A program made the translations under genes and the position numbers. From an uncultured Methanomassiliicoccales archaeon (GTDB lineage: Archaea; Thermoplasmatota; Thermoplasmata; Methanomassiliicoccales; UBA472): DNA of 64,000 nt. The notes under the pieces are model-generated. The model saw only the letters and a list, made by a program, of their open reading frames with translations, was not told the origin of the DNA and did not search any database. Of the stretch, positions 8,839 to 60,984 are shown in pieces (positions within the stretch are counted from its first letter, which is position 1; every line of letters begins with the position of its first letter). The DNA is taken from the NCBI GenBank assembly GCA_963695345.1, contig OY968769.1, forward strand, positions 64,001 through 128,000, in the 5' to 3' direction.

Positions 8839-10446
8839 TCAAGCGTTCAATCGCGGCCCGATGAACTGGTAGACGATCAGGAACAGCACGAACAGGGCCA
8901 AGGCGATGGTTATCCTCGAGACGTACCTGGCCCTCTGCTCCTCGGTGGCGTTCTTCCTTATCTTCTGGACGAAAGCGTCCAGCCCGTCCTTGAACAGGAA
9001 CCCTCCGTCCAGCGGGACCGCCGGCAAAACGTTCGTCATGCCGACCATCAGGTTGATCCAGAACACCCAATAGAGGATGTTGGCGGTGATCCAGAACGCG
9101 TCCGCACCGAACGGAGCGACCAGGCCGGTCGGGTGGAACAGCTCGGTGACCGGGGACTGGACCGGTGCCAGCCCTACGAACGGGAGCGATATGAAGCGCA
9201 GGGTGTCGGTGATGAAGTCCCCCGGGCTCTGCATGTTCGCGTACGGCGAAGCAAGGCGCTGGGAGAGGACTTGGATATTGACCACGCCGGCGCCGAGGTA
9301 GGCGCTGTTGATGCCCATGAACCCATAGTCCGCGAATCCGGATGGGACCGACACGCCGGACGAACGCAGATACTCCGCCCGGCTGAGCAGAGTAACATTG
9401 TTGATGCTGCTGACGTTCTCGTAGGCCTGGGTGTCAGCGTGGTAGGACATCACCGTGATATTGACGGTCTGGCCTCCCTGGGTGTTGCGCAGGGCGACCC
9501 GGAGATCGTTCTCGTTGCGGACCGAGGTGTCGTTCAACGAGGAGATCAGCATGCCGGATTGTATGCCGACCAGGTTGGCCGGGTATCCCTTGGTCACGCT
9601 GGTGACCTGGACGCCCGAGACCAGGGAAGCGTTGTATTGGGTGCTCTTGTAGTAGTACGACAGACTTACCACGGAACCGGCATTGGGAGCGGTGGCGTTC
9701 TGCCAGGAATAGATGTCAGTGACCGGGGCGCCGTTCACCGATACCACCTGTGCTCCGAACTGGAGGTCGCTCATGGAGGCGATGCTGTTGTCGGCGACGG
9801 TCGCGACCACCGGCCCTTCCCGGACCGGCTCGACGGAGCTGAGCATGACCGACGAGAACAGGACGGCACAGATGACCGCCAGGATGATGTTGGTGCCCGG
9901 ACCGACCGCGTAGATGCTGGTGCGGCGCTTACGGTCCGACTTGGTGATGGCCTCCTCGTCCGGTTCCACGAACGCGCCGAGAGGGATGACCAGGAACACT
10001 ATGCCCAGCGATTTGATGTCCATCTTGCCGACGCGCGTCAGAATGCCGTGGGCGAACTCATGGACCACGACGGCGACGATCAGGCCGATGATGCCGTACC
10101 AGATGGGGATGATCGGGTTGAGGCCTGGTATGCCCAGTATCATCTCCGGCCCGGGTGCGGCGGACGCCGGTATCTTGGAGACCAGGGTCGCCTCCCAGAT
10201 CAGCAGCGCCATCATGAAGATGGCGACCGCCAGGCATATCCATTTGGCCGCCGCGGCGTAGAACAGCCAGAATCTCCTGAATTTGGAGAGCTTCTCGATG
10301 ACCTTCTTCCCGCCCTCGGTGCGCCACATCAGGAAGATCATCCCCTGAGTGAAGTGGTACTTGGCCAGTATGCCCCTCTTGTTCAGAAAGTAGATCAATG
10401 CGAAGTAGGCGATAACTACCAGCAAAACGATGACATATTCAATCAT
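8839..10446 (-). CDS. Site-2 (M50) intramembrane metalloprotease with PDZ-like domains
   Basis: HEFAHG and NVLPAVPLDGG motifs, GAFVEPD, two PDZ-like segments. Confidence 0.9.
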   Translation of the reverse strand: MIEYVIVLLVVIAYFALIYFLNKRGILAKYHFTQGMIFLMWRTEGGKKVIEKLSKFRRFWLFYAAAAKWICLAVAIFMMALLIWEATLVSKIPASAAPGPEMILGIPGLNPIIPIWYGIIGLIVAVVVHEFAHGILTRVGKMDIKSLGIVFLVIPLGAFVEPDEEAITKSDRKRRTSIYAVGPGTNIILAVICAVLFSSVMLSSVEPVREGPVVATVADNSIASMSDLQFGAQVVSVNGAPVTDIYSWQNATAPNAGSVVSLSYYYKSTQYNASLVSGVQVTSVTKGYPANLVGIQSGMLISSLNDTSVRNENDLRVALRNTQGGQTVNITVMSYHADTQAYENVSSINNVTLLSRAEYLRSSGVSVPSGFADYGFMGINSAYLGAGVVNIQVLSQRLASPYANMQSPGDFITDTLRFISLPFVGLAPVQSPVTELFHPTGLVAPFGADAFWITANILYWVFWINLMVGMTNVLPAVPLDGGFLFKDGLDAFVQKIRKNATEEQRARYVSRITIALALFVLFLIVYQFIGPRLNA

Positions 10447-10517
10447 CCAGGCCCTCTGCCAGCACTAACGACCACGTGCTATAAAAAATCTCGTGGTTTT
10501 ATTTTGGGCCACGTCAT

Positions 10518-10895
10518 TTATTTTCTGGTCCAGCAGTCCTCGGGAACGTCGTCATAGGTGGCGGCGGCATCGTCCTTGTTGCGCGATGCCGGGTCCTCCT
10601 TCATGGCCATCCTCATGATCTGGTCGGTCTTCAGGACCCAGTAGTGGATGCGCCAGAGCTTCCCCTTCTTTAAATGGACCTCTTCCTGCCAGGTGGTAAG
10701 GAAACCTTCCTCTTCCAGCATATAGAAGACGTCCCGGTCTTCCGAAGTAAGTCGGTTGTCGATGGTCTGGTCGGTGAATCCGAAAAAGCTCATCAAATAC
10801 TCTGCCAATTTGTTGATGTCACTTTCGGACATGCCTTTCTTGCCCAAGGTGTTACCCAGAGCTAGGCAGACTTCGCTCATGCTCACGACCGTCAA
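10518..10895 (-). CDS. Conserved Thermoplasmata protein (DUF6015-like)
   Basis: FFGF..IDN.L..EDR.VFYMLEEEG.L...WRIHYW pattern; TTG start with an RBS-like GGGGA. Confidence 0.65.
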   Translation of the reverse strand: MTVVSMSEVCLALGNTLGKKGMSESDINKLAEYLMSFFGFTDQTIDNRLTSEDRDVFYMLEEEGFLTTWQEEVHLKKGKLWRIHYWVLKTDQIMRMAMKEDPASRNKDDAAATYDDVPEDCWTRK

Positions 10896-10980
10896 TACGT
10901 TCCCCAGGCCTGATTGCGCTTCTGCAAAATAATACTTATGCAGGCTGGATGCGATTCTTGATAACACCCATCTAACGAAT

Positions 10981-11292
10981 CTAGGTTTTCTTCCATCTTC
11001 CGTCCCTGCCCCAGAGGGCTAGATACAGTAAGGCTTCGGCTATGACCATGGCGACCAGGATGATGATGGGGACCGAGACCGACAGCCCTGGTTCGACCAT
11101 CTGCCACACCTGCAGCAAGATGAAAGCGTCGACCATCAGGCAGCCGATGAAATACCAGTATCGGAGGTAGTCCCCCAGGAACCATCCCCTCCATCCCGGA
11201 TCGCGACGCATTACGACCGGCTTCAGACGATCCTCTGTCTCCTCGACCTCCGGAGGGGGGACCTTGACCGTGATCTTGCGCTTCGTCGCCAT
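10981..11292 (-). CDS. Small two-TM membrane protein
   Basis: 103 aa, two hydrophobic helices, co-oriented 10 bp after oppF. Confidence 0.65.
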   Translation of the reverse strand: MATKRKITVKVPPPEVEETEDRLKPVVMRRDPGWRGWFLGDYLRYWYFIGCLMVDAFILLQVWQMVEPGLSVSVPIIILVAMVIAEALLYLALWGRDGRWKKT

Positions 11293-11301
11293 CGTCGCGA
11301 T

Positions 11302-12411
11302 TCACCGGAAGTGACAGGCGACAAAGTGCTCGCCACCTTTGTCTATCAGCTGCGGTTCCATCTCCTCGCAGATCGCCTCACGGTACCGACAACGGGTGTG
11401 GAACCGGCATCCAGAGGGCGGATTGGCCGGACTGGGCACGTCGCCGCTCAGGACGATCTTGTCCCGTTTCACTTCCGGGTCGGGTACCGGTATGACGCTG
11501 AGCAGAGCCTCGGTGTACGGATGCAGCGGCTTGCCGAACAGGTCCTCCTTTTTCGCCGACTCCACGATCTTTCCCAGGTACATGACGTTGACCCGGTCGC
11601 ACATGTACCGGATGGTGCTCAGGTCATGGGATATGAACAGATAGGTCAGGTTGAAGTCGGCCTGAAGGTCGTTCAGCATGTTCAGGATCTGGGCCTGCAC
11701 GGAGACGTCCAGCGCCGAGGTCGGCTCGTCCAGCACCACCAGGTCCGGGTTAAGCGCCAGGGCCCGGGCGATGCCGATCCTCTGCCTCTGGCCGCCACTG
11801 AACTCGTGCGGATAGCGGTACATGTGCTCCGGATTGAGACCGACATGCTCCAGCAGGGACTGGACCCGCTCGGTCAGCTCATCGCCGGTGGCGATACCGT
11901 GGACGTGCAGCGGTTCTCCCAGAGTGTCCCTGATCAGCATGCGGGGGTTCAATGAGGAGTACGGGTCCTGGAACACGATCTGCATCTCCCGGCGCAACCG
12001 CCGAAGATCGTCTGGTCTTCGTCTCGCGAGGGAATACTTGTCCCTTATCTCCTCAAGCTCTTCAATTTTAGGCGCTCTGTGGCTGCTCCAGCGGGAGGAT
12101 GATGCGCCGTTCTGTTCCAGCGCGGCCTCTTCCTCCTCCAGTTTGACCACCTTCGACCGGACCTCCGCCGGCATTTTGTAGTAGATATCCCCGTCCGTCG
12201 GTTTGGTGAGCATCAGCATGCATCTGCCGGTGGTGGTCTTCCCGCAACCGGATTCGCCGACCAGTCCGATGGTCTCCCCTTGCCTGATGAAGAAGTCGAT
12301 CCCGTCTATCGCCTTGACCGCTCCCACCTGCTTCTTGAGCAGCCCTCCCCGGAAAGCGAAATGCTTCTTCAATTGCCTGGCCTCGATCAAGATGTCATGG
12401 TCCGCCATCAT
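11302..12411 (-). CDS. Oligopeptide/dipeptide ABC transporter ATPase (OppF/DppF type)
   Basis: GESGCGKTT, FSGGQRQR, LDEPTSALD, C-terminal GCRFHTRC. Confidence 0.92.
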   Translation of the reverse strand: MMADHDILIEARQLKKHFAFRGGLLKKQVGAVKAIDGIDFFIRQGETIGLVGESGCGKTTTGRCMLMLTKPTDGDIYYKMPAEVRSKVVKLEEEEAALEQNGASSSRWSSHRAPKIEELEEIRDKYSLARRRPDDLRRLRREMQIVFQDPYSSLNPRMLIRDTLGEPLHVHGIATGDELTERVQSLLEHVGLNPEHMYRYPHEFSGGQRQRIGIARALALNPDLVVLDEPTSALDVSVQAQILNMLNDLQADFNLTYLFISHDLSTIRYMCDRVNVMYLGKIVESAKKEDLFGKPLHPYTEALLSVIPVPDPEVKRDKIVLSGDVPSPANPPSGCRFHTRCRYREAICEEMEPQLIDKGGEHFVACHFR

Positions 12412-13937
12412 TCCACCCCGTTATAGAGGAAGCAGGCCACGAAATGTCCTGGCCTGACCTCGGTCAGTTCGGGTTTCTTGGCCTTGCAGTTCTGCATCGC
12501 GTAGGGACATCGTGGATGGAAACGGCATCCCGAGGGCGGTTTGACCAGATTGGGGACGCTTCCTTCGATGGTTTCCAGCCTTCCCATGTCGACATTCACC
12601 CTCGGGATGGAGTTCATGAGACCCTGGGTATAGGGGTGGAGCGGTTCCTTGAATATCTCCCGGTTGGTTCCGATCTCGGCAATGGTACCGGCATACATCA
12701 CGCCCACCCGGTCGCAGATCTCCGCCACTACCCCGAGATTGTGGGTTATCATCAGGATGGAGGTTCCGGTCTCCTCCTGCAGATCCTTCATTAGCTTGAG
12801 TATCTGGGCCTGTATGGTCACGTCCAACGCGGTGGTGGGTTCGTCGGCGACGAGCAGGTGGGGTTTGCAGGCCAGCGCCATGGCGATCATCACCCGCTGC
12901 TGCATTCCGCCGGATAGCTCATGCGGATAGGAGCCGACGACATACTCGGGGTCAGGGATGCGTACCAGCCGGAGCATCCGTTCCGCGCGGTCCAGCGCCT
13001 CGGCCTTCATGGGCAGTTCGAAACGGCGGACTATCGGAATCTTCGCCATCAGCCGATAGGACCGCCGGTCCGGGTTCTTGGCCATGTTCTTGTACAGTCC
13101 CCGATACAGACGGTATTCAAAGCCGGATATCGATCTGGTCCGCCTACTGTGGAAGCTTCCGCCGCAGTAAGGGCAGGTCAAGGCACCTTCGGTCAGGACC
13201 GCATGGCAATTTGAGCATACGTCTTCGTTCTTGTCGTTCTTCTCTTTGCTCACTTTCTTGTACTGGTCGACCTTCTTGATCCCTTCCTCGATCTTGTCCA
13301 ACGCGCTCTCGCAGAGCGACTTCTTCTCGTGAAGCAGGAGAACCTCGGAGATCTGGTCCCCCACCTTATACACTGGATTGAGAGCGCTCATGGGCTCCTG
13401 GAATATCATGGAGATGTATTTTCCCCGGATCTTCTGCATGTAGTCCTTGCCTCTTTTCAGGAGGTCGTACCTGGATTCGAGCTGGAGCAGTTCGGCCTTG
13501 AGGTCCTTCACTTTTTGGTCTTCCGGACTGACCTTCGCTTTCTGCAGTGACCCGAGCTCGTCGGTTATCTGCTTGCGTCTTGCCAGCTCCTTCAGGTCCT
13601 TCTCGATCCGAACCAGCTGTGGATCGTCTTTGGAGGCGGTGGGGTGCGACCCCAGGTATCCGGCCTTGGCATCCTCCATCGCCTGGATCGATTCGTCATT
13701 GGCCAGGGGTTTCATGAAATAGATCTGCCCCTTCTCTATTCGACCAGGTGGCTGGGGGATAAGCCTCATCACGGTGTTGGCGGTGACGCTCTTGCCGCAG
13801 CCGGTCTCGCCCACCAGACCAAGGGTCTCTCCCTCATAGATCGTCAGGTTGATCCCGTCCAGGGCTCTGACGATTCCCGCCTGGGTGTAGAAATTCACGT
13901 AGATGTCCTTGATCTCGATCATCGCATCTTTGGACAT
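12408..13937 (-). CDS. Oligopeptide/dipeptide ABC transporter ATPase (OppD/DppD type) with large insertions
   Basis: [33 protein letters not shown]; inserted coiled-coil and CxxC...CxxC segments. Confidence 0.92.
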
Positions 13938-13941
13938 TCAT

Positions 13942-15033
13942 TCACCTCCTCATCCGCGGGTCCAATATGTCTCTCAGAGAATCACCCAGGAGGCTGAATC
14001 CCATGACGAACATGAAAATGAATCCAGCTGGGAAAACCCATGCCCAGTACGGGTTGTACAATGTCCCATTCGGGAAGGGATAGGGGATCTGGGAGAACAT
14101 CATCTGTGAGCCGGCGGAGACCATCCTCCCCCACTCGCAGAGACCCGGGGTGGAGAATCCGATGAAGGATAGCGCGGCGGCCACCAGGACCACGGTACCG
14201 AAGTCCATGGTTATGGAAACAGTGAGCGGGGATATTGTGTTGGGGACGATGTGACGGAACAATATCCTGTTCTTTTTTGCGCCGATGGCACGAGCCGCCT
14301 CCACGTAGGTCGACTCCTTGATAGAGAGGACCTGCCCGCGTATCAATCTCGCATACGACGGCCACCACGTTATCACCAAAGCCAGAATGATGAATTCCAA
14401 TGATTTGCCCAATATCGCGACTATGCCAAGTGCCAGGATAAGGGAGGGTATCGAGAGGAAGACATCGGTCATCCTCATCAGTATCTCATCCAGGACCCCG
14501 CCATAGTAACCGGCGATGGCGCCGACCACCACTCCAATGATCGCGGCGATTCCGACGATCGCCAACGCGATGTAGATCGAGGTCCTTGCTCCCCAGATCG
14601 TCCCGTAGTAGACGTCCTCACCGGACTGGCCAGTACCCCAGACGAAGTTCACGTGTTTGCCCATTGATGATGCCCGTGGCTCCTGGAGGTTTGGCGGTGA
14701 GAGATCGAAGCGATTGATTATCGGATCTGGCTGGGCATTGCCCGACAATGGAGGTGCCAGCCATGGTGCCGCGACGGCAATGAATACGATCGACAGAATG
14801 AGGGCTAGACCAAATATCCCCAACGGATTCTTCCTGAAGACCCTTATGTAATTCTTGAACTCCCTGAGCCGAGGGCGCAATCTGTTGTACGTCTTAGACT
14901 TAAGGGTCTGTTTTTGCCTTATGTCATCGATTGGAACGCAGACCGGTTTTTCCATATCGGCGATTATTGTTTGGTCTTTGTGGCCGCCAGCGGTTCCGTC
15001 TAGTTTCTCCTTCTCATCCTTCTTGAACAGCAT
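13942..15033 (-). CDS. Oligopeptide ABC transporter permease (OppC type)
   Basis: EAA motif YVEAARAIGA, multiple TM helices; start MLFKK at 15033. Confidence 0.9.
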   Translation of the reverse strand: MLFKKDEKEKLDGTAGGHKDQTIIADMEKPVCVPIDDIRQKQTLKSKTYNRLRPRLREFKNYIRVFRKNPLGIFGLALILSIVFIAVAAPWLAPPLSGNAQPDPIINRFDLSPPNLQEPRASSMGKHVNFVWGTGQSGEDVYYGTIWGARTSIYIALAIVGIAAIIGVVVGAIAGYYGGVLDEILMRMTDVFLSIPSLILALGIVAILGKSLEFIILALVITWWPSYARLIRGQVLSIKESTYVEAARAIGAKKNRILFRHIVPNTISPLTVSITMDFGTVVLVAAALSFIGFSTPGLCEWGRMVSAGSQMMFSQIPYPFPNGTLYNPYWAWVFPAGFIFMFVMGFSLLGDSLRDILDPRMRR

Positions 15034-48144: not shown

Positions 48145-48895
48145 ATGATCTCGAACGGCTGGATTGGGCTAAGGACGATGCTATGGTTCTCGACAAGAAA
48201 ACTTTTGCTTAACCGCAGATGGCTGATCGTGGCACTGCTCGCCCTGCTGGTCGCCGCCTTCTCAGGCTTTTCGGCGACGCAGAACATCGACCGACTGGAG
48301 GATGGGAGCAACATACTGGCAATGCTCATCCTCTCCTTCCTCCTGCCGGTGCTGGCGCTGGTATACGGGGCTTCGATGATCCGGAACGAGATCGACGACC
48401 GCAGCATCACAACCGTCGTCACCTCGCCCCTGGACCGCCGCGTATCCTACCTGGCATACTTCCTGGCGCTCATCCTGGTGCTTGGGGCGATGATGCTGTT
48501 GCTCAACATCGTGGGATGGTCGAGCTTTTTCCTGGTCGCCGGGATGGACGCTGAGGCGGTGGACCTGCTGCTGGGTTACTCGCTCATCCTGTTGATAGGC
48601 GGAGTGGTGTATGCCTCCCTGTTTTTGGCACTGGGCGTGGTGCTCAGGCAGCCGATCTATCTCGGACTCATCTACGTCTTTGTCTGGGAGGGGTTCGTGG
48701 GCTCGGCGCCCGGTGCCATAGGGGAGTTTACCATCGGGCACCAGCTGGGAGTAATCGCCTCCCAGGTCATCGGTGAGGGTGGGATATCACGCCTGAGTGG
48801 CGATCCCCTGATATCGGCGATGGCCCTTTTGGCGGTGACGGCAGTCAACCCTGGTCCTGGGGGCAGTGACCTTCCACGGGAAGGAGCTCCCCTGA
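48145..48895 (+). CDS. ABC-2 type permease; apparent frameshift near 48850
   Basis: TM helices, EIDDRSI; alternative frame ends LVLGAVTFHGKELP* just before a terminator. Confidence 0.8.
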
Positions 48896-48904
48896 ACCGG
48901 CCAT

Positions 48905-48935
48905 GGCCGAAAGGCCGCCTTTTTTTATTCTTTTT
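48905..48935 (+). terminator. Hairpin plus T-tract terminator
   Basis: GGCC-GAAA-GGCC followed by T runs. Confidence 0.55.
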
Positions 48936-49342
48936 CAGGCAAGGATCGTTCGGAGACCTCCGACCCAGGGTAACTGAGATGGCATTGCGTTGTTGGGCGG
49001 TGAAGAGGGCTTTCATACCCTTCTTTCTCCCTATCGACGAAGACCAGGCCGATTGTTGGCACCGCCAGCGGAGCTGTGTATCCAATTGGCCAGGATCGTT
49101 CCGTCAGATCCATTCGATGCCGTGGTCGTGGCAGGGGGCGAAACGCTCGCCGACGATGACTGAGTCCCAAACCGCCGGAGCTGTGGCATGCATCTTGACT
49201 GCGTGGATAGGATCGCAACGAGGCAGGTATGGAGGGGATGAAAGCCCGCACGTTCTACGGCATTCGTTCGTCAGGACGATGTAAGTAACCGATGTGATCT
49301 TACATCTGTTGAACATAGCCCCTGAGATAGCATTCCCAATGA

Positions 49343-50498
49343 TCAGGCCGCAGGAGTGGGTATCTCTCCTTTCCCCGGTGGCGGCGTCGCCGAAGAGGAT
49401 GGCGCTGTTGTTGGTCAGGTCTCCCTTCTTGATCATCAGCTCGGAGTTCAGGAACTGCCGCGCCCCGAGGAACGCCATTCCGATGTTGTCCACCTGGAAG
49501 AGCCTCCCGTAGAACTGTTGGGTGAAGAGCTCGGCGCCGACCTCGGTCACCGGCCAGAAATAGCCGGCATAGGCCTGCACCCCTCTGGCGATGAAGGCGG
49601 CAGCGATCCCGTTGCTATGGTTCTCGTTCGACACCAGCCGCTTGCCTCCCGCCGCCCGCCCTGATTCACAGGCGCTGTTGAAGACGATGTACGGCGGTTT
49701 CTTCCATTTCAGGTCGAAGATCTCGTCAGCGGTAAGGTCCCCGTCCGCGAACCGTACCGCACTGGTCTCCGGTGCGGAAGGGTCGAATGAGCCGTGCCCG
49801 GAGAAATGAACGATGTCATAGTCCTCACTGGCCAGCCTTTCGGAGAAGGCCGCCAGCGTGGCCTGTTCCCGGGTCAATACATCCACCCTGACACTGAACC
49901 GGTCATACGGACCTTCCAGCTTTCGGAGCGCGTCGATCTCCCGTTCCCCCGCGGTCAGGTCGAGGGTCGGATTTCCGATCGCCAGTATCTTGACCACATT
50001 GTCCTCGTTCAATGGGTTGGCACCGGGTTCGGGGAATATCCTGGTGGTGACCAATCGACCGAAGGGGGTCACCATGGCCATCGGGACATCCCGGGCCATG
50101 AGCAGTTCCCAGGGAAGGTTGAGGATGGTCTCATCCACGTTCAGAAGGATCGCCGTGGGCTCGATGTTCGCCAGTACCTTGGTCCCCGGAACACCGATGA
50201 AGATGTCGTACAATCTCTTTCCCAGCAGTCGAACCCGTTCCTGGGCCTCCTTCGGTGAGAGGTCCTCTCTGACGCTCCACAGATAGAGCTCGTGCGTCGT
50301 GTCCAGCAGGTACCGCTCATCCTCCGGCTCTACCGTGATGTTCTGTTGCCAGGTCACCCCGGTCCCCTCCTCATGTATGGAGACGAGGAACTGGAGCGAC
50401 TCGCCATCCATTGGCAGGTCCCTGCTGTACCGGGCGATCGAGATGTGCAGCACTCGCGGAAGAGACTTCTTCATGCCTTTGCGATATTCACCTATCAT
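49343..50498 (-). CDS. Stand-alone CHAT-domain (caspase-clan) protease; 3' end uncertain (ORF track reads on to 49104)
   Basis: LPWELL, IVHFSGHG (catalytic His), FNSACESG (catalytic Cys), AAAFIARG, FWPV, LFGD. Confidence 0.85.
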
Positions 50499-50538
50499 GG
50501 CCAGGATACCTCCCTCCTTTCTTGTTTACACCCTATGA

Positions 50539-51361
50539 TCAGATCGTCAGCACCTTTTGCATTTCGAACGCGTCGTCCTTGTTCCCTACCCGGTCCAGGT
50601 TCGGTCTTTGATTCTTGGGCATCATCTTTACTATGCTCTCGTGCAATGTCAGGTAGTTCCCGTCGAACTGACCGTCGTTCCAGACCGCCCTCAGCATGGA
50701 AGTGAACAGACTGTTCCTCTCGCCGTCCCTGGATTGCTGCCAATCCTGGCAGCCGGAGATCAGGAGGACAGAGGCCTTCACGTCCTCTGCCCTGACGTTT
50801 GCGGTCTCCCTCTGGAGCTGGTCATAGAATTCCCTGTTGCTCTCGTATACGTCCTTCACGATCGAATCTGGCATCGCCTTCACCCGTGATCGGAACGGTG
50901 TACCCTGCTGCAACGAACGGATGACGTCCCCTTTGATGATCGTCCCGCTGTGGCAGCTGTCGGAGAAGACGATCACGCGCACCCCTTGGGCGAATTTGGA
51001 GTACAGCGCCAGGAGCTCATCGTCCATGATCTCACCGTCATAGAGGCACCAGGTCTCATCCTGTTCGTCGTCCTCGTCGCCATTCACATCCGGTAACCAG
51101 CTGCCATGGCCGGAATAGTAGAGCAGGAAAATGTCCCCCGACACCAGCACATTGGCCGCTTTCGTCATCTCGTCGATCACCGATTGCCTGGTCGCCTCCG
51201 CGGTAAAGAGGGCCTTTACCTCGAATCCTTTTGACCTGGCAATTTCGACCATGTCATTGGCATCCCCCTCACAGGCGTTCAGCTCGCCTGACCATTCGTT
51301 CGCGTACTTGTTGAGGGTCGACCCGGTTCAACCCGATTATCAATGCCTTTCCTATTGCCAT
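50539..51361 (-). CDS. Metacaspase/peptidase C14 family protein; apparent frameshift near 51313
   Basis: MAIGKALIIGLNRVDP / ..GELNACEGDANDM, YYSGHG, DETWC, SDSCHSG, LISGCQDWQQS. Confidence 0.88.
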
Positions 51362-51584
51362 ACGATCCCCTCGGCCACCCTGGATCGGGCTGGGCGTAAA
51401 TCGATCAATATTCATTCGTTATCGAAGTTATAAAACATTTCCGCCCGCCCCGGTTTCGATTCCTTGAAACTTATCGGACAAGGATATTGCCATATGGCGA
51501 TCGAGCTGACATCACCCTTGCATTGGTCAATTATACATTTTAATAGATGCAAATGCGTTAATTATACGATCGAGGGGGAGACAC

Positions 51585-52157
51585 ATGAAATGTCCTAAAT
51601 GTGGAGAGGAGAATCCGGATAATGCGTTGAAATGTGCCGCGTGCGATTATCCATTTACCAAGGCACCGCCACCGAGACCGGGCATAGACCCGTCCAGACC
51701 CCAGGATCCCGATTATGCGAAGAGGTACTGGGAGAGATTGGACCAGTTGTTCTACGACACGCTGAAGAACGCTGAGACGGCTTATAAGGTCAACCTGATC
51801 ATAAACCTGATCGTGGTCGCCGTCGGGATATCGCTCCTGGCATATTCGATGTATTATAGCTGGTTCAACAATCTGGATATCTACTCGGTGGGTTTTGGAG
51901 CATTGGGAGTGGTCACCTTCATAACCACGTTCTTCATCACCACGCAAAAGAAGATCCAAAGAAGGGTGGGGGACCTGACCCAGATCCAGATCGTGTACCG
52001 CTCCTATTGTCTCTTCGAGGAGGCGGTGGGCGACTGGGAGAGGAAGCATTCCGATGCGGACATGACGCTGCAGAACTTGGACGAGATAAATGCCCAACTT
52101 TCCAAGATGATGGCGTCGGCCACGAACAGCATAGAACAGGTCGTTGGGGAGGACTGA
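51585..52157 (+). CDS. Zinc-ribbon plus two-TM membrane protein
   Basis: CPKC..CAAC, Pro-rich linker, two TM helices, helical tail; RBS GAGGGGG. Confidence 0.75.
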   Translation: MKCPKCGEENPDNALKCAACDYPFTKAPPPRPGIDPSRPQDPDYAKRYWERLDQLFYDTLKNAETAYKVNLIINLIVVAVGISLLAYSMYYSWFNNLDIYSVGFGALGVVTFITTFFITTQKKIQRRVGDLTQIQIVYRSYCLFEEAVGDWERKHSDADMTLQNLDEINAQLSKMMASATNSIEQVVGED

Positions 52158-52333
52158 GGTACCGGTCACAGGCTGGACCGGTTCCGCCCCGATGGACAAG
52201 ATGAGGGGTTTCGATCATGCGGTGTCGGAGCCCATCTAGATATGGCAACCAAATCGAAATCCAAATATGCCCAGAACTTACGTAAAATTCATTCGCCATT
52301 ATACATGATCTTAATTTGACGGAGGAACGAGCA

Positions 52334-52625
52334 ATGATACCGGAGAAGCTGATGGAAATCATGGAAAAGGATGGAGTTGTCGCTATCGCCACCTTGGGCC
52401 CCGGCGGTCCACATATGGTCAATACTTGGAACAGCTATCTCAGAATTTCAAAGCAGGGGCAATTATTGATCCCAGTAGGCTACATGCATAGGACAGAGGC
52501 CAACATTGCCCACGATCCGAACATATTGATCACATTGGGCAGCAGCAAGGTAGAGGGCTTGCACGGAGCGGGCGCCGGTTTCCTGATCAAGGGAAAAGCG
52601 AGATTCTTAACCTCTGGCCCTGAAG
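52334..52625 (+). pseudogene. FMN-binding split-barrel (pyridoxamine-phosphate-oxidase-like) protein, 3'-truncated
   Basis: GVVAIAT, HMVNTWNSY, LGSSKVEG, GFLIKG, then runs into antisense repeat DNA. Confidence 0.7.
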
Positions 52626-52626
52626 A

Positions 52627-53118
52627 CCCCGGCGGAGTAACGGTTGGCAAGGATGCTATTCTGACCGGAGCTATCTATCTGCTGCCACACCACCATGGCA
52701 TTGCCGTTGATGTCCATGGCGATCTGCGGATTGGTTGCCTCCCCTGTACCGGACTCTAGCCAAACTGCCCCTCCCCAAACCCCGGCGGAGTAATGGTTGG
52801 CTAATATACTTTGGTTCCTTGAGCCGTCTGTCTGCTGCCACACCACCATGGCATTGCCGTTGATGTCCATGGCGATCTGCGGATTGGTTGCATTCCCGGT
52901 GCCAGCCTCTAGCCACACTGCGCCTCTCCAGGTCCCCGCAGAGTAACGGTTGGCGAGTATGCTCGTGTTACTAGAGCTGTCAACCTGTTGCCATACCACT
53001 ATGGCATCTCCATTGCCTGACCTGGCGATCTGCGGATTGGTTGCATTCCCGGTGCCAGCCTCTAGCCAGACCACTCCACTCCAAACCCCGGCGGAGTAAC
53101 GGTTGGCCAAGATGCTAT
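52627..53118 (-). repeat. ~3.2 tandem 153-bp coding repeats (51-aa beta-propeller-like blades); orphan gene fragment
   Basis: CCCCGGCGGAGTAACGGTTGGC-like units recur at 52627, 52780, 52933, 53086; unit SILANRYSAG.W...WLEAGTGNATNPQIA....G.A.VVWQQ. Confidence 0.85.
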
Positions 53119-53363
53119 AGTGACCGGATTCCATTTCCGGCCTGGACGGATGAAAGAGAGCGGGATCGATCATGCCGACTCTCCTTTCATCTTCCCAATT
53201 TCCCCTTGAACCAATGATGGACCCGCGAACCGCCCTGCCAGATACTGAATGGATTCTTTTGATTCCCCGAACAAGAAATTTCGAGGAACCGAAATCTTCG
53301 GTTATTATTGGTTCAGAAACCTTCTTTATTGGCATCTGCCTGGGTTTGCCCCATGATCTGCTC

Positions 53364-59336: not shown

Positions 59337-60984
59337 ATGTCGAGTGGTCAACAGATTATCATTCTTAGGGAAGGTACCGAGAGGACTAAGAATAGGGACG
59401 CGCAGACGAACAACATCGCTGCTGCCCGCGCCGTCGCTGACGCGGTAAGATCGACCTTAGGGCCCAAGGGAATGGACAAGATGCTGGTCGATTCTATGGG
59501 AGACGTCGTCATCACCAACGATGGGGTCACTATACTGAAGGAGATTGACATACAGCATCCCGCGGCAAAGATGGTCGTCGAGGTCGCGAAGACCCTAGAT
59601 AGCGAGTGCGGAGATGGGACGACATCTTCAGTCATTATGGCAGGTGAACTTCTAAAGAATGCGGAATCACTCATCGAACAGCATATTCATCCTACAATAA
59701 TCGCGAACGGGTATAAGTTGGCGGCCGCTGAGGCATTGAAGGTATTGGATACTATTGCCGTCCCCGTCGCCGCCGAGGATGTTGAGATGCTCACCAAAGT
59801 CGCTATGACCGCCATGACCGGCAAGAGCGTGGGCGGACAGAGGGACTTCCTCTCCGACCTGAGCGTCCAGGCCATCAAGGCCATCGCCGAGAAGAACAGC
59901 GCTGGCAAGTGGACCGTCGACGTCGACAACATCAAGGTGGAGAAGAAGACCGGCGGATCGATCGCCGACACCGAGATCATCAAGGGCATCGTGCTCGACA
60001 AGGAGCGCGTGCACCCGAGGATGGCCAAGGTCGTCAAGAAGGCCAAGATCGCCCTGCTCTCCGCCGCTCTCGAGATCAAGAAGACCGAGGTCGAGGCCAA
60101 GATCCAGATAACCGATCCGTCCCAGATGCAGCGCTTCCTCGATCAGGAAGAGGCGACCCTGAAGAGGATGGCCGACAAGATCAAGGCCGCAGGCGCCAAC
60201 GTCGTCTTCTGCCAGAAGGGCATCGACGACCTGGTGCAGCACTACCTGGCAAAGCAGGATATCTTCGCTGTCAGGCGCCTCAAGGAATCCGACATGGAAA
60301 AGATCTCCAAGGCCACCGGGGCCAACGTCGTCGGCAACATCGACGAGCTGAGCGCCACGGACCTCGGGAGTGGCTGGCATGGTGGAAGAGAAGAAGATAG
60401 GGGAGTCTGAGATGACCCTCATAACAGATTGTAAGAACCCGAAGGCGGTTTCTGTCATCATCCGGGGCGGTACGGAACATGTCATCGACGAGGTCGAGCG
60501 GGCATTGCATGACTCGCTTCGCGTTGTCGGAATCGCGCTGGAGGACGGTAAGGTCGTCCCGGGCGGAGGAGCCCCTGAGATCGAGCTGTCCCTCAGGCTC
60601 GCATCCTATGCCTCCACCGTCGGAGGAAGGGAGCAGCTGGCCATCGAGGCCTTCGCCAACGCCATGGAGATCATCCCAAAGGCGCTAGCTGGGAATGGCG
60701 GACTCGACATCATCGACGTCGTCATCCAGCTGAAGAGCGCGCACGAGAAGAAGAACGGCAAGAACATGGGCATCAACCTGGACACCGGCAAGCCGGACGA
60801 CATGCTGAAGCTCAACGTCATCGAGCCGCTCCGCGTCAAGACCCAGGCGGTCAAGTCGGCCACAGAGGTCGCCAACATGATCCTGAGGATCGACGACGTC
60901 ATCGCCTCCAGGAAGGCACCCCCGATGCCGCCAGGCGCACAGGGTGGAATGCCGCCGGGAATGGGCATGCCAGACATGATGTAA
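59337..60984 (+). CDS. Thermosome (group II chaperonin) subunit; apparent frameshift near 60370
   Basis: [34 protein letters not shown], Gly/Met/Pro tail. Confidence 0.95.

Follow-up and report, generated by a model that had tools for sequence, protein, structure and literature searches.

In bacterial gasdermin systems, clan-CD proteases of the caspase-like or CHAT type activate a membrane-damaging effector encoded next door. A cascade in which one protease acts on another has been described for a type III-B system of Haliangium ochraceum, where SAVED-CHAT is reported to be activated by cyclic tri-adenylate (cA3) and to cleave and activate PCaspase, the two together bringing about abortive infection (Steens et al., bioRxiv 10.1101/2023.06.23.546230); the same text places the SAVED-CHAT/PCaspase cluster in only six further genomes. 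The single-gene anti-phage system Borvo (BovA) is likewise said to act through a CHAT protease domain (bioRxiv 10.1101/2024.10.26.620412). Here we analyse a 64,000-nucleotide stretch of DNA (contig OY968769.1, positions 64,001 to 128,000, hereafter the window) from an uncultured Methanomassiliicoccales archaeon, in which a C14 metacaspase gene is followed by a gene for a stand-alone CHAT protease of a family that we call CHAT-380, with a divergent gene for a protein with a zinc ribbon and two transmembrane (TM) segments, the Zn-ribbon/2-TM protein, on the other side (Table 1). We regard it as an even call that the two proteases make up a sensor-less module that runs a short proteolytic cascade of conflict or cell-death type.

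The original prediction for this locus described two co-oriented caspase-clan proteases, 40 bp apart and with intact His/Cys dyads, and this is confirmed by the open reading frames (ORFs), the Pfam matches and the 40-nt spacer. Peptidase_C14 (PF00656) matches the metacaspase ORF with 65.8 bits against a cut-off of 21.4, and with 79.8 bits in a six-frame search of the genome; CHAT (PF12770) matches the second ORF with 97.4 bits against a cut-off of 24, with a weaker Peptidase_C25 match on the same core. The C14 dyad motifs YYSGHG and DSCHSG and the p10 motif SGCQDWQQS, of the 'SGCxD' type, are all intact, as are the CHAT motifs HFSGHG and NSACES. With H85 and C136 of the metacaspase invariant in 40 homologues, and H231, H235 and C277 of CHAT invariant in 45 sequences, both enzymes look active. 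Neither contains a TPR, NTPase or other sensor domain recognised by Pfam, and no hydrophobic signal-like stretch is seen on reading either N-terminus, in keeping with the earlier claim that sensor domains and signal peptides are absent; both proteins look cytoplasmic. Because they are co-oriented, the C14 and CHAT genes likely form one operon. The divergent region upstream, predicted at about 220 bp, runs from the ATG at 51361 to the start of the 2-TM gene at 51585, but this ATG is out of frame with the longest C14 ORF as assembled. It is AT-rich, with TATA-like stretches facing both genes that are putative promoters.

The CHAT homologues are uniform, mostly 380–386 amino acids (aa) long, and the closest, of 384 aa, is 96% identical; the family holds 234 proteins at E≤0.001 among 8000 scored candidates. 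No solved relative was found by sequence with the CHAT profile. In an AlphaFold model built from 45 sequences (pLDDT 81), residues ∼13–375 match the C-terminal protease region of separase and the CHAT part of Csx29 with Z scores of 20–22 over 292–318 residues, and caspases and legumain align only to residues ∼161–375, with Z of about 11. Judged by this model, CHAT-380 is a bare core of the separase/Csx29 type, a predicted pseudo-protease subdomain plus an active one with nothing attached. NCBIfam has no match for CHAT or the 2-TM protein, and for C14 only a sub-threshold match to caspase_w_EACC1.

The metacaspase belongs to a large family, with 7492 proteins at E≤0.001 among 8000 scored candidates and typical lengths of 272–279 aa. 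The same genome encodes an intact paralogue of 273 aa that is 71% identical to the window protein, matches PDB 3BIJ (GSU0716 of Geobacter) end to end (E 5.7e-85), and, in its p20 part, also matches metacaspases of yeast, plants and trypanosomes. The C14 tree splits into two clades with 100/100 support, clade A containing the usual CHAT-380 partners and clade B the 3BIJ-like proteins; the His, Cys and p10 motif are kept in both. Clade B holds the window protein, its paralogue and the CHAT-380 partners in a Chloroflexia locus (L018) and a Thermomicrobiales locus (L026), and the partner in a further locus, L059, which is outside the tree, was typed as clade B by tblastn only.

By analogy, the closest known system appears to be the SAVED-CHAT/PCaspase cascade, of which the window pair would be a sensor-less variant. 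Both encode a CHAT protein and a C14 protein together with active-type dyads, although for the window this likeness is one of genes only, and the SAVED-CHAT structure matches the active subdomain of the window CHAT (residues 163–375) with Z 17.1. The differences are that Pfam finds no SAVED domain in the window CHAT, whose N-terminal half is a separase-type pseudo-protease subdomain in the model, and that no cyclase, CRISPR, sigma factor, inhibitor or kinase genes were detected near the pair. PADLOC (PADLOC-DB version 2023), applied to the 24 ORFs in 29.7–64 kb of the window, finds no source of a cyclic oligonucleotide, neither type III CRISPR nor a CD-NTase. Csx29 of the type III-E Craspase and the separases share the two-subdomain protease core and give the best structural matches over nearly the whole CHAT, although at an identity of only 10–18%; CHAT-380 lacks their TPR/helical regulatory domain and a Cas7-11 or securin-like partner, and at ∼380 aa is much shorter than Csx29 (∼650–750 residues) or separases (1,000–2,100). 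The metacaspase shares the p20 dyad and the 'SGCxD' motif of p10 with GSU0716, titled 'Uncharacterized protein GSU0716' in PDB 3BIJ, and with type I metacaspases and orthocaspases, and differs in lying directly upstream of a CHAT gene. BovA is likewise a CHAT protease with no CRISPR association, although the link to phage defence is BovA's, and the window CHAT is half its size and paired with C14. The original statement that no gasdermin or Cas gene is visible holds for the neighbouring ORFs by Pfam and PADLOC: nothing gasdermin-like is found, and the only trace of Cas proteins is weak Csa3-like winged helix-turn-helix (wHTH) similarity.

A further comparison is with the STAND conflict systems, in which nSTAND1 and related STAND NTPases go with caspase-like effectors; a study of the NTP-dependent conflict systems of multicellular prokaryotes defined the nSTAND1 family (Kaur et al., eLife 2021, PMC8195603), and the accessible part of that article contains no mention of a C14/CHAT-380 pair. 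Relatives of the window pair sit with nSTAND1 (L018) or a WD40-STAND protein (six loci) and with patatin and further genes that resemble effectors, whereas the window has the protease pair alone. No description of a C14 gene paired with a minimal stand-alone CHAT gene was found in a full-text search of a literature library that takes in only a minority of subscription-journal papers.

Conservation of the C14/CHAT-380 pairing

Scans with CHAT-380 alignments returned 25 loci on genome contigs and 41 on metagenome contigs, 66 in all, from which nine near-identical duplicates and two loci that are not CHAT-380 were dropped to leave 55 distinct loci. These were queried with both C14 types, other CHAT proteins, C11 and the 2-TM protein, using simple ORF calls, and many of the metagenome contigs are short. 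A same-strand C14 gene lies within 500 bp of CHAT-380 in 30 of the 55, upstream in 24 and downstream in six; the gap is no more than 20 nt in 21, and on these simple calls a 4-nt overlap between C14 stop and CHAT start is seen at several loci. Four more loci have a C14 gene at a distance of 1.4–4.5 kb. Where at least 850 bp of flank is present on both sides (30 loci), 17 have an adjacent C14 gene, two have one within 5 kb, and 11 have none. Because the loci were all found through CHAT, these adjacency counts hold for CHAT-380 genes rather than for C14 genes. The co-occurrence of C14 and CHAT that had been put forward for a neighbourhood search is found, the pairing is conserved across phyla, and a functional coupling of the two genes is supported.

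The loci come from NC10, Bacillota, a deltaproteobacterium, Chloroflexota, Acidobacteria, Acidimicrobiia, Steroidobacteraceae, Armatimonadota, Electronema, Thermomicrobiales, Methanosarcinales and Promethearchaeota, and CHAT-380 crosses between domains at 60–85% identity, with Methanosarcinales, Oscillospiraceae, NC10 and a deltaproteobacterium in a single clade. Two of the loci, L022 and L028, are Promethearchaeota contigs (from an Asgard metagenome-assembled genome, MAG); in one, CHAT-380 is beside a large WD40 (STAND-like) gene, and in the other it is clustered with a clade-A C14, a second CHAT and a member of the ∼398-aa family described below. The adjacent partners are of clade A in 27 of the 30 loci and of clade B in three, and all three clade-B partners are downstream of CHAT, the opposite of the window order. 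In the CHAT-380 tree the window protein groups with A-partnered CHATs and that of a sister genome (G007; SH-aLRT 89), apart from the B-partnered L018 and L059 proteins, so that partnership with clade B needs two changes, although the backbone is weak and no strongly supported branch forces this. Our reading is that CHAT-380 needs a C14 gene next door and that a clade-B gene fills this place in the window lineage. Searches for clade-B C14 in 301 and 251 genomes of two phyla gave one match each, numbers that are too small for statistics.

Closer to the window genome the distribution is sparse. Among 40 relatives from the same genus, family and order, C14 is found in none and CHAT-380 clearly in one, the sister genome G007 (60% identity), with a fragment in G005; the genes that flank the protease pair lie far apart in G007, such that the region is a synteny break. 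These observations uphold the earlier placement of the pair in an accessory zone. The G007 CHAT gene, found at a similar coordinate, was considered as a syntenic copy and ruled out, since tblastx matches only the CHAT gene itself. The window genome has exactly two C14 and two CHAT matches, and each C14 is beside a CHAT: the second C14 is directly downstream of the second CHAT, a 635-aa protein with fn3, a hydrophobic segment and a C-terminal CHAT domain. This second clan-CD cluster (L003, G000:C1:320000-339999) spans ∼9874–15013 of its locus with the 273-aa C14 and the 635-aa fn3/TM/CHAT genes; ORFs with BspA-type leucine-rich repeats (LRRs) precede the CHAT gene, and a divergent C11 clostripain-like gene is close by. 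Together, this cluster and the window mirror the single large cluster of L018.

Table 1. Coordinates of the features discussed. Positions are those of the window unless a locus label (L) precedes them.
Feature	Position	Strand	Description
C14 metacaspase gene, GSU0716/PDB 3BIJ-like clade ('B-type', clade B)	50539..51361	-	273-aa model, ignoring a surplus base near 51311
C14 longest ORF as assembled	50539..51252	-	237 aa, lacking the first beta-strand
Stand-alone CHAT gene, 'CHAT-380' family	49343..50498	-	Homologue-supported 384-aa model, TGA at 49343-49345
CHAT ORF as assembled	49104..50498	-	464 aa, owing to a surplus base near 49353
Read-through tail of CHAT ORF	49104..49342	-	80 codons; no counterpart in any homologue
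Spacer, C14 stop to CHAT start	50499..50538	-	40 nt
Divergent intergenic region, C14 start to 2-TM gene start	51362..51584		223 bp; AT-rich
Zn-ribbon + two-TM + C-terminal helix protein	51585..52157	+	190 aa; no Pfam model covers the family core
Surplus base in ABC-2 permease gene (48145-49284)	48847	+	C-terminus frameshifted; outside the protease module
∼398-aa family members	L005:5215-6432, L009:4224-5402, L010:1029-2204, L015:10733-11929, L017:11817-13001, L028:2927-4123		
MBL-fold genes	L013:6752-7873, L017:6797-7918, L014:2-1168, L009:3-506		

A predicted two-step cascade

In the scheme that we propose, one protease would cut the other in an exposed loop and thereby license it to cleave cellular or effector targets; we infer the cleavage, its direction and its trigger. 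The metacaspase would process itself in the p20-p10 linker, at the fully conserved basic position that precedes the 'MP' motif, and would then cut CHAT at Arg287, in the disordered loop after Cys277, upon which the separase-like CHAT could act as a specific downstream cutter. Metacaspases (family C14B) are specific for Arg/Lys and many are calcium-gated, and executioner caspases are activated by a cut in the loop after the catalytic Cys. Position 161 in the C14 linker is Arg or Lys in all 40 homologues, followed by Met163 in 39 of the 40 and an invariant Pro164. In CHAT, 43 of 45 sequences retain Arg287, which lies in the motif G-G-x-R-L-V-S, and residues 279–295 form the only long low-confidence loop of the model (pLDDT below 50), directly after the catalytic Cys277. 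These patterns suggest Arg287 and C14 position 161 as candidate cleavage sites, and the conserved basic residues together with the executioner-caspase-like loop lead us to lean, by a small margin of belief, to the metacaspase acting first rather than CHAT. The alternative, nearly as likely, is that CHAT would act first, as in SAVED-CHAT/PCaspase. For the two-step cascade of the original prediction there speak the pairing in 30 of the 55 loci, the position of both C14 genes of the genome beside CHATs and the SAVED-CHAT precedent; the cleavage step itself stays conditional.

Several observations weigh against this cascade and its presumed conflict or cell-death role, which we draw from sequence, models and analogy. 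First, the proposed direction of cleavage leans on conserved basic residues that could equally serve catalysis or folding. Secondly, the 11 fully assessable loci without C14 indicate that CHAT can stand alone, and the sister species G007, 99% complete, has CHAT and no C14 by the Pfam model. Thirdly, the window C14 is of the unusual clade and its order is opposite to that of the three other clade-B loci, so that the adjacency could be secondary. Fourthly, PADLOC finds no defence system among the 24 ORFs around the pair, only generic ABC-ATPase and wHTH similarities, and no relatives of CHAT were found in plasmid, phage and viral-contig collections. Fifthly, the window CHAT matches only positions 509–665 of 711 in the BovA profile (E 2.5e-12), and because only the catalytic core of BovA is matched it is not a BovA. 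Finally, both protease genes are frameshifted as assembled, and if these shifts are genuine, a core strand is missing from the metacaspase and the module no longer works in this strain.

A broader version of the cascade would have the C14/CHAT-380 pair as a self-contained, sensor-less immune or suicide module, spread horizontally through at least ten bacterial and archaeal phyla, methanogens and Asgard archaea among them, in which the metacaspase, possibly ion-gated, licenses CHAT by a cut in the loop that follows its catalytic cysteine, and in which the Zn-ribbon/2-TM protein is one of several interchangeable membrane-directed effectors along with patatin, MBL-fold and SLATT-type proteins. 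Taken as a whole, we think this unlikely.

The divergent Zn-ribbon/2-TM gene

The Zn-ribbon/2-TM protein has only sub-threshold Pfam matches to zinc-ribbon models, at residues 2–26, and nothing else in Pfam at E≤0.01. Its model (pLDDT 83) has helices at 42–95, 99–154 and 162–188, two of them carrying the TM segments. A word-indexed search gave ten homologues, three of which (67–99% identical) have the zinc ribbon while the rest, mostly ∼155–160 aa, are without it, and a profile search of 1.84 billion cluster representatives gave 439 at E≤0.001. The closest C14 homologue (P0122) and a 2-TM homologue (P0242, 77%) each come from a 1897-bp contig of the same source, which would speak for a link between the two genes if it is one and the same contig. 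Twenty longer members of the family have only unrelated extra domains (CARDB, HEAT, fn3 and Frankia_peptide).

That the divergent protein is a membrane-side component of the protease module is possible, although we hold it somewhat below an even call, and we are a shade more tentative on the explicit form of this idea, in which it is a membrane effector or membrane-side regulator that the protease pair cleaves. The principal argument for both is L018, where a family member at L018:5329-5943 (E 5.7e-17; hhalign probability 97.7% over 98 columns) is ∼2 kb from the same pair of protease types, CHAT-380 and a clade-B C14. One strand of this locus carries patatin, the 2-TM gene, C11, CHAT and nSTAND1 in an apparent operon, and the divergent strand CHAT-380, the clade-B C14, a UDG-like gene and an amidohydrolase. 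Among 301 Chloroflexota genomes the 2-TM family is found in one and clade-B C14 in one, and these are the same genome. An analogous pairing is seen at L089:6630-8199, where a clade-B C14 found without CHAT seeding is followed 32 nt downstream by a DUF4231/SLATT_3 two-TM gene; no CHAT was seen in this 8.6-kb contig. Against the effector idea, tblastn and profile searches detect a family member in none of the 54 other distinct CHAT-380 loci; what stands of the original claim is a family member near the pair in one Chloroflexia genome.

The second point against it comes from the relatives G001 and G015, which carry the 2-TM gene with no C14 or CHAT match. In G015 (99% complete) it is 1.2 kb downstream of, and in the same orientation as, the same regulator/small-protein/dehydrogenase block that in the window precedes the ABC transporter. 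Because G015 keeps this syntenic copy without the proteases, the comparison suggests that the 2-TM gene is an old resident and that the ABC transporter and the proteases arrived next to it by insertion; alternatively, G015 may have lost them. In this genome, of a related genus, the homologue (L090, G015:C2, 6064-7129) looks shortened, with an ORF of 109 aa inside an open frame of 145 aa, and directly adjoins a phage-integrase-family fragment, which suggests that the locus is an insertion hotspot.

Thirdly, membership in the SLATT, DUF4231 or TRADD-N-associated TM families, of which the first and last had been raised at the outset, could not be shown by profile or profile-profile comparison. 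SLATT_6 matches one of ten 2-TM relatives (E 0.003) and CyanoTRADDas_TM two of 76 (E 0.12), with no consistent family; CyanoTRADDas_TM also appears in the Atlas at a score of 0.87, after unnamed clusters, which is a lead only. A six-frame search of the genome with PF20712 at E≤10 has no match to the 2-TM gene, the DUF4231/SLATT_3 protein finds nothing in BLASTP against the 2-TM protein and has an hhalign probability of 0.2% against its family profile, and a Foldseek search with the 2-TM model returns nothing at E≤0.001.

Gene company, reading frames and other explanations

A functional pair could instead serve ordinary regulated proteolysis, as in a stress response, in maturation or turnover, or as a developmental switch like HetF. 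This we find unlikely, if well short of negligible. The immediate surroundings suit it, since no defence genes are found around the window pair, which lies among genes for an ABC transporter, a dehydrogenase, a PNPOx-like protein and an MtaA-like methyltransferase; the CHAT of the second locus, fused to fn3 and a membrane segment and beside BspA-type LRR surface proteins, hints at surface-protein processing; and many CHAT-380 loci consist of just the two genes, unaccompanied by an NTPase or effector. Against it, the family is patchy, crosses domains at the high identities given above and is present in almost none of the close relatives searched, a distribution that suits mobile conflict genes better than housekeeping genes, and the richer loci carry nSTAND1, patatin and MBL-fold genes.

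Such company, seen in the richer CHAT-380 loci, is characteristic of conflict systems. In six loci there are, in addition, a second CHAT of ∼480 aa, a ∼398-aa family and a large WD40-repeat protein (cluster c3). We read the c3 protein as a STAND-type NTPase from its putative P-loop motif, and WD40-type families are the only ones among the Pfam matches listed for it (25 families). The ∼398-aa family, which has no Pfam or NCBIfam match and lies between the ∼480-aa CHAT and either the large WD40 gene or CHAT-380 in the six loci, is a candidate component of these systems. Genes with a metallo-beta-lactamase (MBL) fold are found in four clusters. In three of these (L013, L014 and L017) the gene lies immediately upstream of CHAT-380, and in L009 it is at the edge of the cluster; the arrangement recalls the protease-activated MBL nuclease of the trypsin-MBL module (10.1101/2025.09.03.673762). 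A patatin-like phospholipase is present in L004, L008 and L018, and the nSTAND1 NTPase of L018 scores 83.4 bits, with C11 and a second CHAT in the same locus; no nSTAND1 match above the cut-off is found in the whole window genome. The defence or cell-death role of the original prediction is thus upheld in part, by the conflict-type genes (nSTAND1, WD40-STAND, patatin and MBL-fold) beside relatives, with no counterpart from PADLOC around the window pair, and it is because of gene company elsewhere only that we retain this role. ABC ATPases beside CHAT-380 in L021 and L023 were considered as a recurring partner and rejected, being of the oligopeptide type and unrelated to the DrrA-type ATPases of the window. 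Further to the right in the window, a 242-aa ORF at 52607-53335 (minus strand) contains 3–4 tandem repeats of ∼45 aa (...SILANRYSAGVW.GAVWLE.GTG.ATNPQIAMDINGNAMVVWQQ...) with no Pfam or PADLOC match; at its 3′ end it shares sequence with the end of the PNPOx-like ORF (52316-52759).

The frameshifts raise the possibility that the locus is a decaying remnant, in which the shifts are real, the metacaspase has no first strand and nothing functional is made in this strain. In the CHAT gene, the surplus base makes the frame miss its TGA and adds the 80 codons of the tail, and all seven aligned homologues end where the window protein reads '...RRDTHS', at the position of 49343; the tail is probably not translated in the real organism. 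In the C14 gene, the 237-aa ORF begins at the equivalent of residue 36 of the 273-aa paralogue, and the N-terminal 16 codons, MAIGKALIIGLNRVDP from the ATG at 51361, are in another frame owing to one surplus base, so that the N-terminus is out of frame as assembled, whereas the intact paralogue aligns over 273 residues with PDB 3BIJ. A third surplus base lies in the ABC-2 permease gene. One single-base frameshift in each of three adjacent genes, over a distance of 2.5 kb, is more than the rough genome-wide rate estimated from a completeness of 85% would predict, and the L026 locus also has a split CHAT and a stop inside C14, both of which favour decay.

To examine these positions, contigs from four public runs were compared with 48700–51700 of the window. 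The best run is from a closely related strain (85–99% alike), represented by 17 pieces that are from under 90% to over 99% alike, and it has one base fewer at exactly 48847, 49353 and 51311; its other indels are in two intergenic stretches. The base at 48847 is missing in contigs of two runs, and the related-strain contigs bridge the C14–CHAT junction with its 40-nt same-strand spacing. The thermosome gene of the window (59337-60984, plus strand) is split likewise, with Cpn60_TCP1 positions 1–310 in 59337..60410 and 311–489 in 60370..60984, and the window genome, a single contig of 2.56 Mb, is 85% complete as against 99% for its one-contig sister. Because the related strain lacks the surplus bases, the thermosome gene is split and completeness is low, we read the frameshifts in both protease genes as probably assembly indels. 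The genes show no stops or other damage beyond the shifts, and are 71–96% identical to intact relatives; real decay we consider distinctly unlikely. The permease ORF (48145-49284, plus strand) has a junk tail after its surplus base; the shifted frame ends near 48893, directly followed by a GC-rich hairpin and a T run. At L026:1709-3705, from a Thermomicrobiales MAG, CHAT-380 is in two tblastn pieces and the adjacent clade-B C14 has an internal TGA, through either decay or assembly error.

Least probable of all is an accidental adjacency of two independent clan-CD proteases with no mutual action in one variable region. In its favour, the window C14 is of clade B when 27 of 30 adjacent partners elsewhere are of clade A, its order with CHAT reverses that found at the three other clade-B loci, clade-B genes are also met without a CHAT neighbour, as in L089, and synteny breaks off in this region. 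Against it, each of the two C14 genes of the genome adjoins one of its only two CHAT genes, clade-B C14 is rare, the only one in 301 Chloroflexota genomes being beside CHAT-380, and the 40-nt spacing is kept in the related strain.

The significance of the window itself is the more modest, as it is an accessory gene pair with a putative role, whose assembly may misrepresent both reading frames, and its version is an unusual sub-variant of the conserved module, with a clade-B partner and a possible 2-TM neighbour. We know of no experimentally shown prokaryotic two-tier caspase-like cascade other than the CRISPR-associated one. The C14/CHAT-380 pairing is much simpler, with two genes, and recurs across many phyla and both prokaryotic domains; this recurrence points to a two-step protease switch of a simple kind, comparable to the switches behind cell death and immunity in animals. 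Should the two enzymes act on each other, they would be the smallest natural system for the restraint and release of separase/Csx29-type proteases, and the pairing would provide a defined partner for bacterial and archaeal metacaspases and bear on the origin of caspase cascades.

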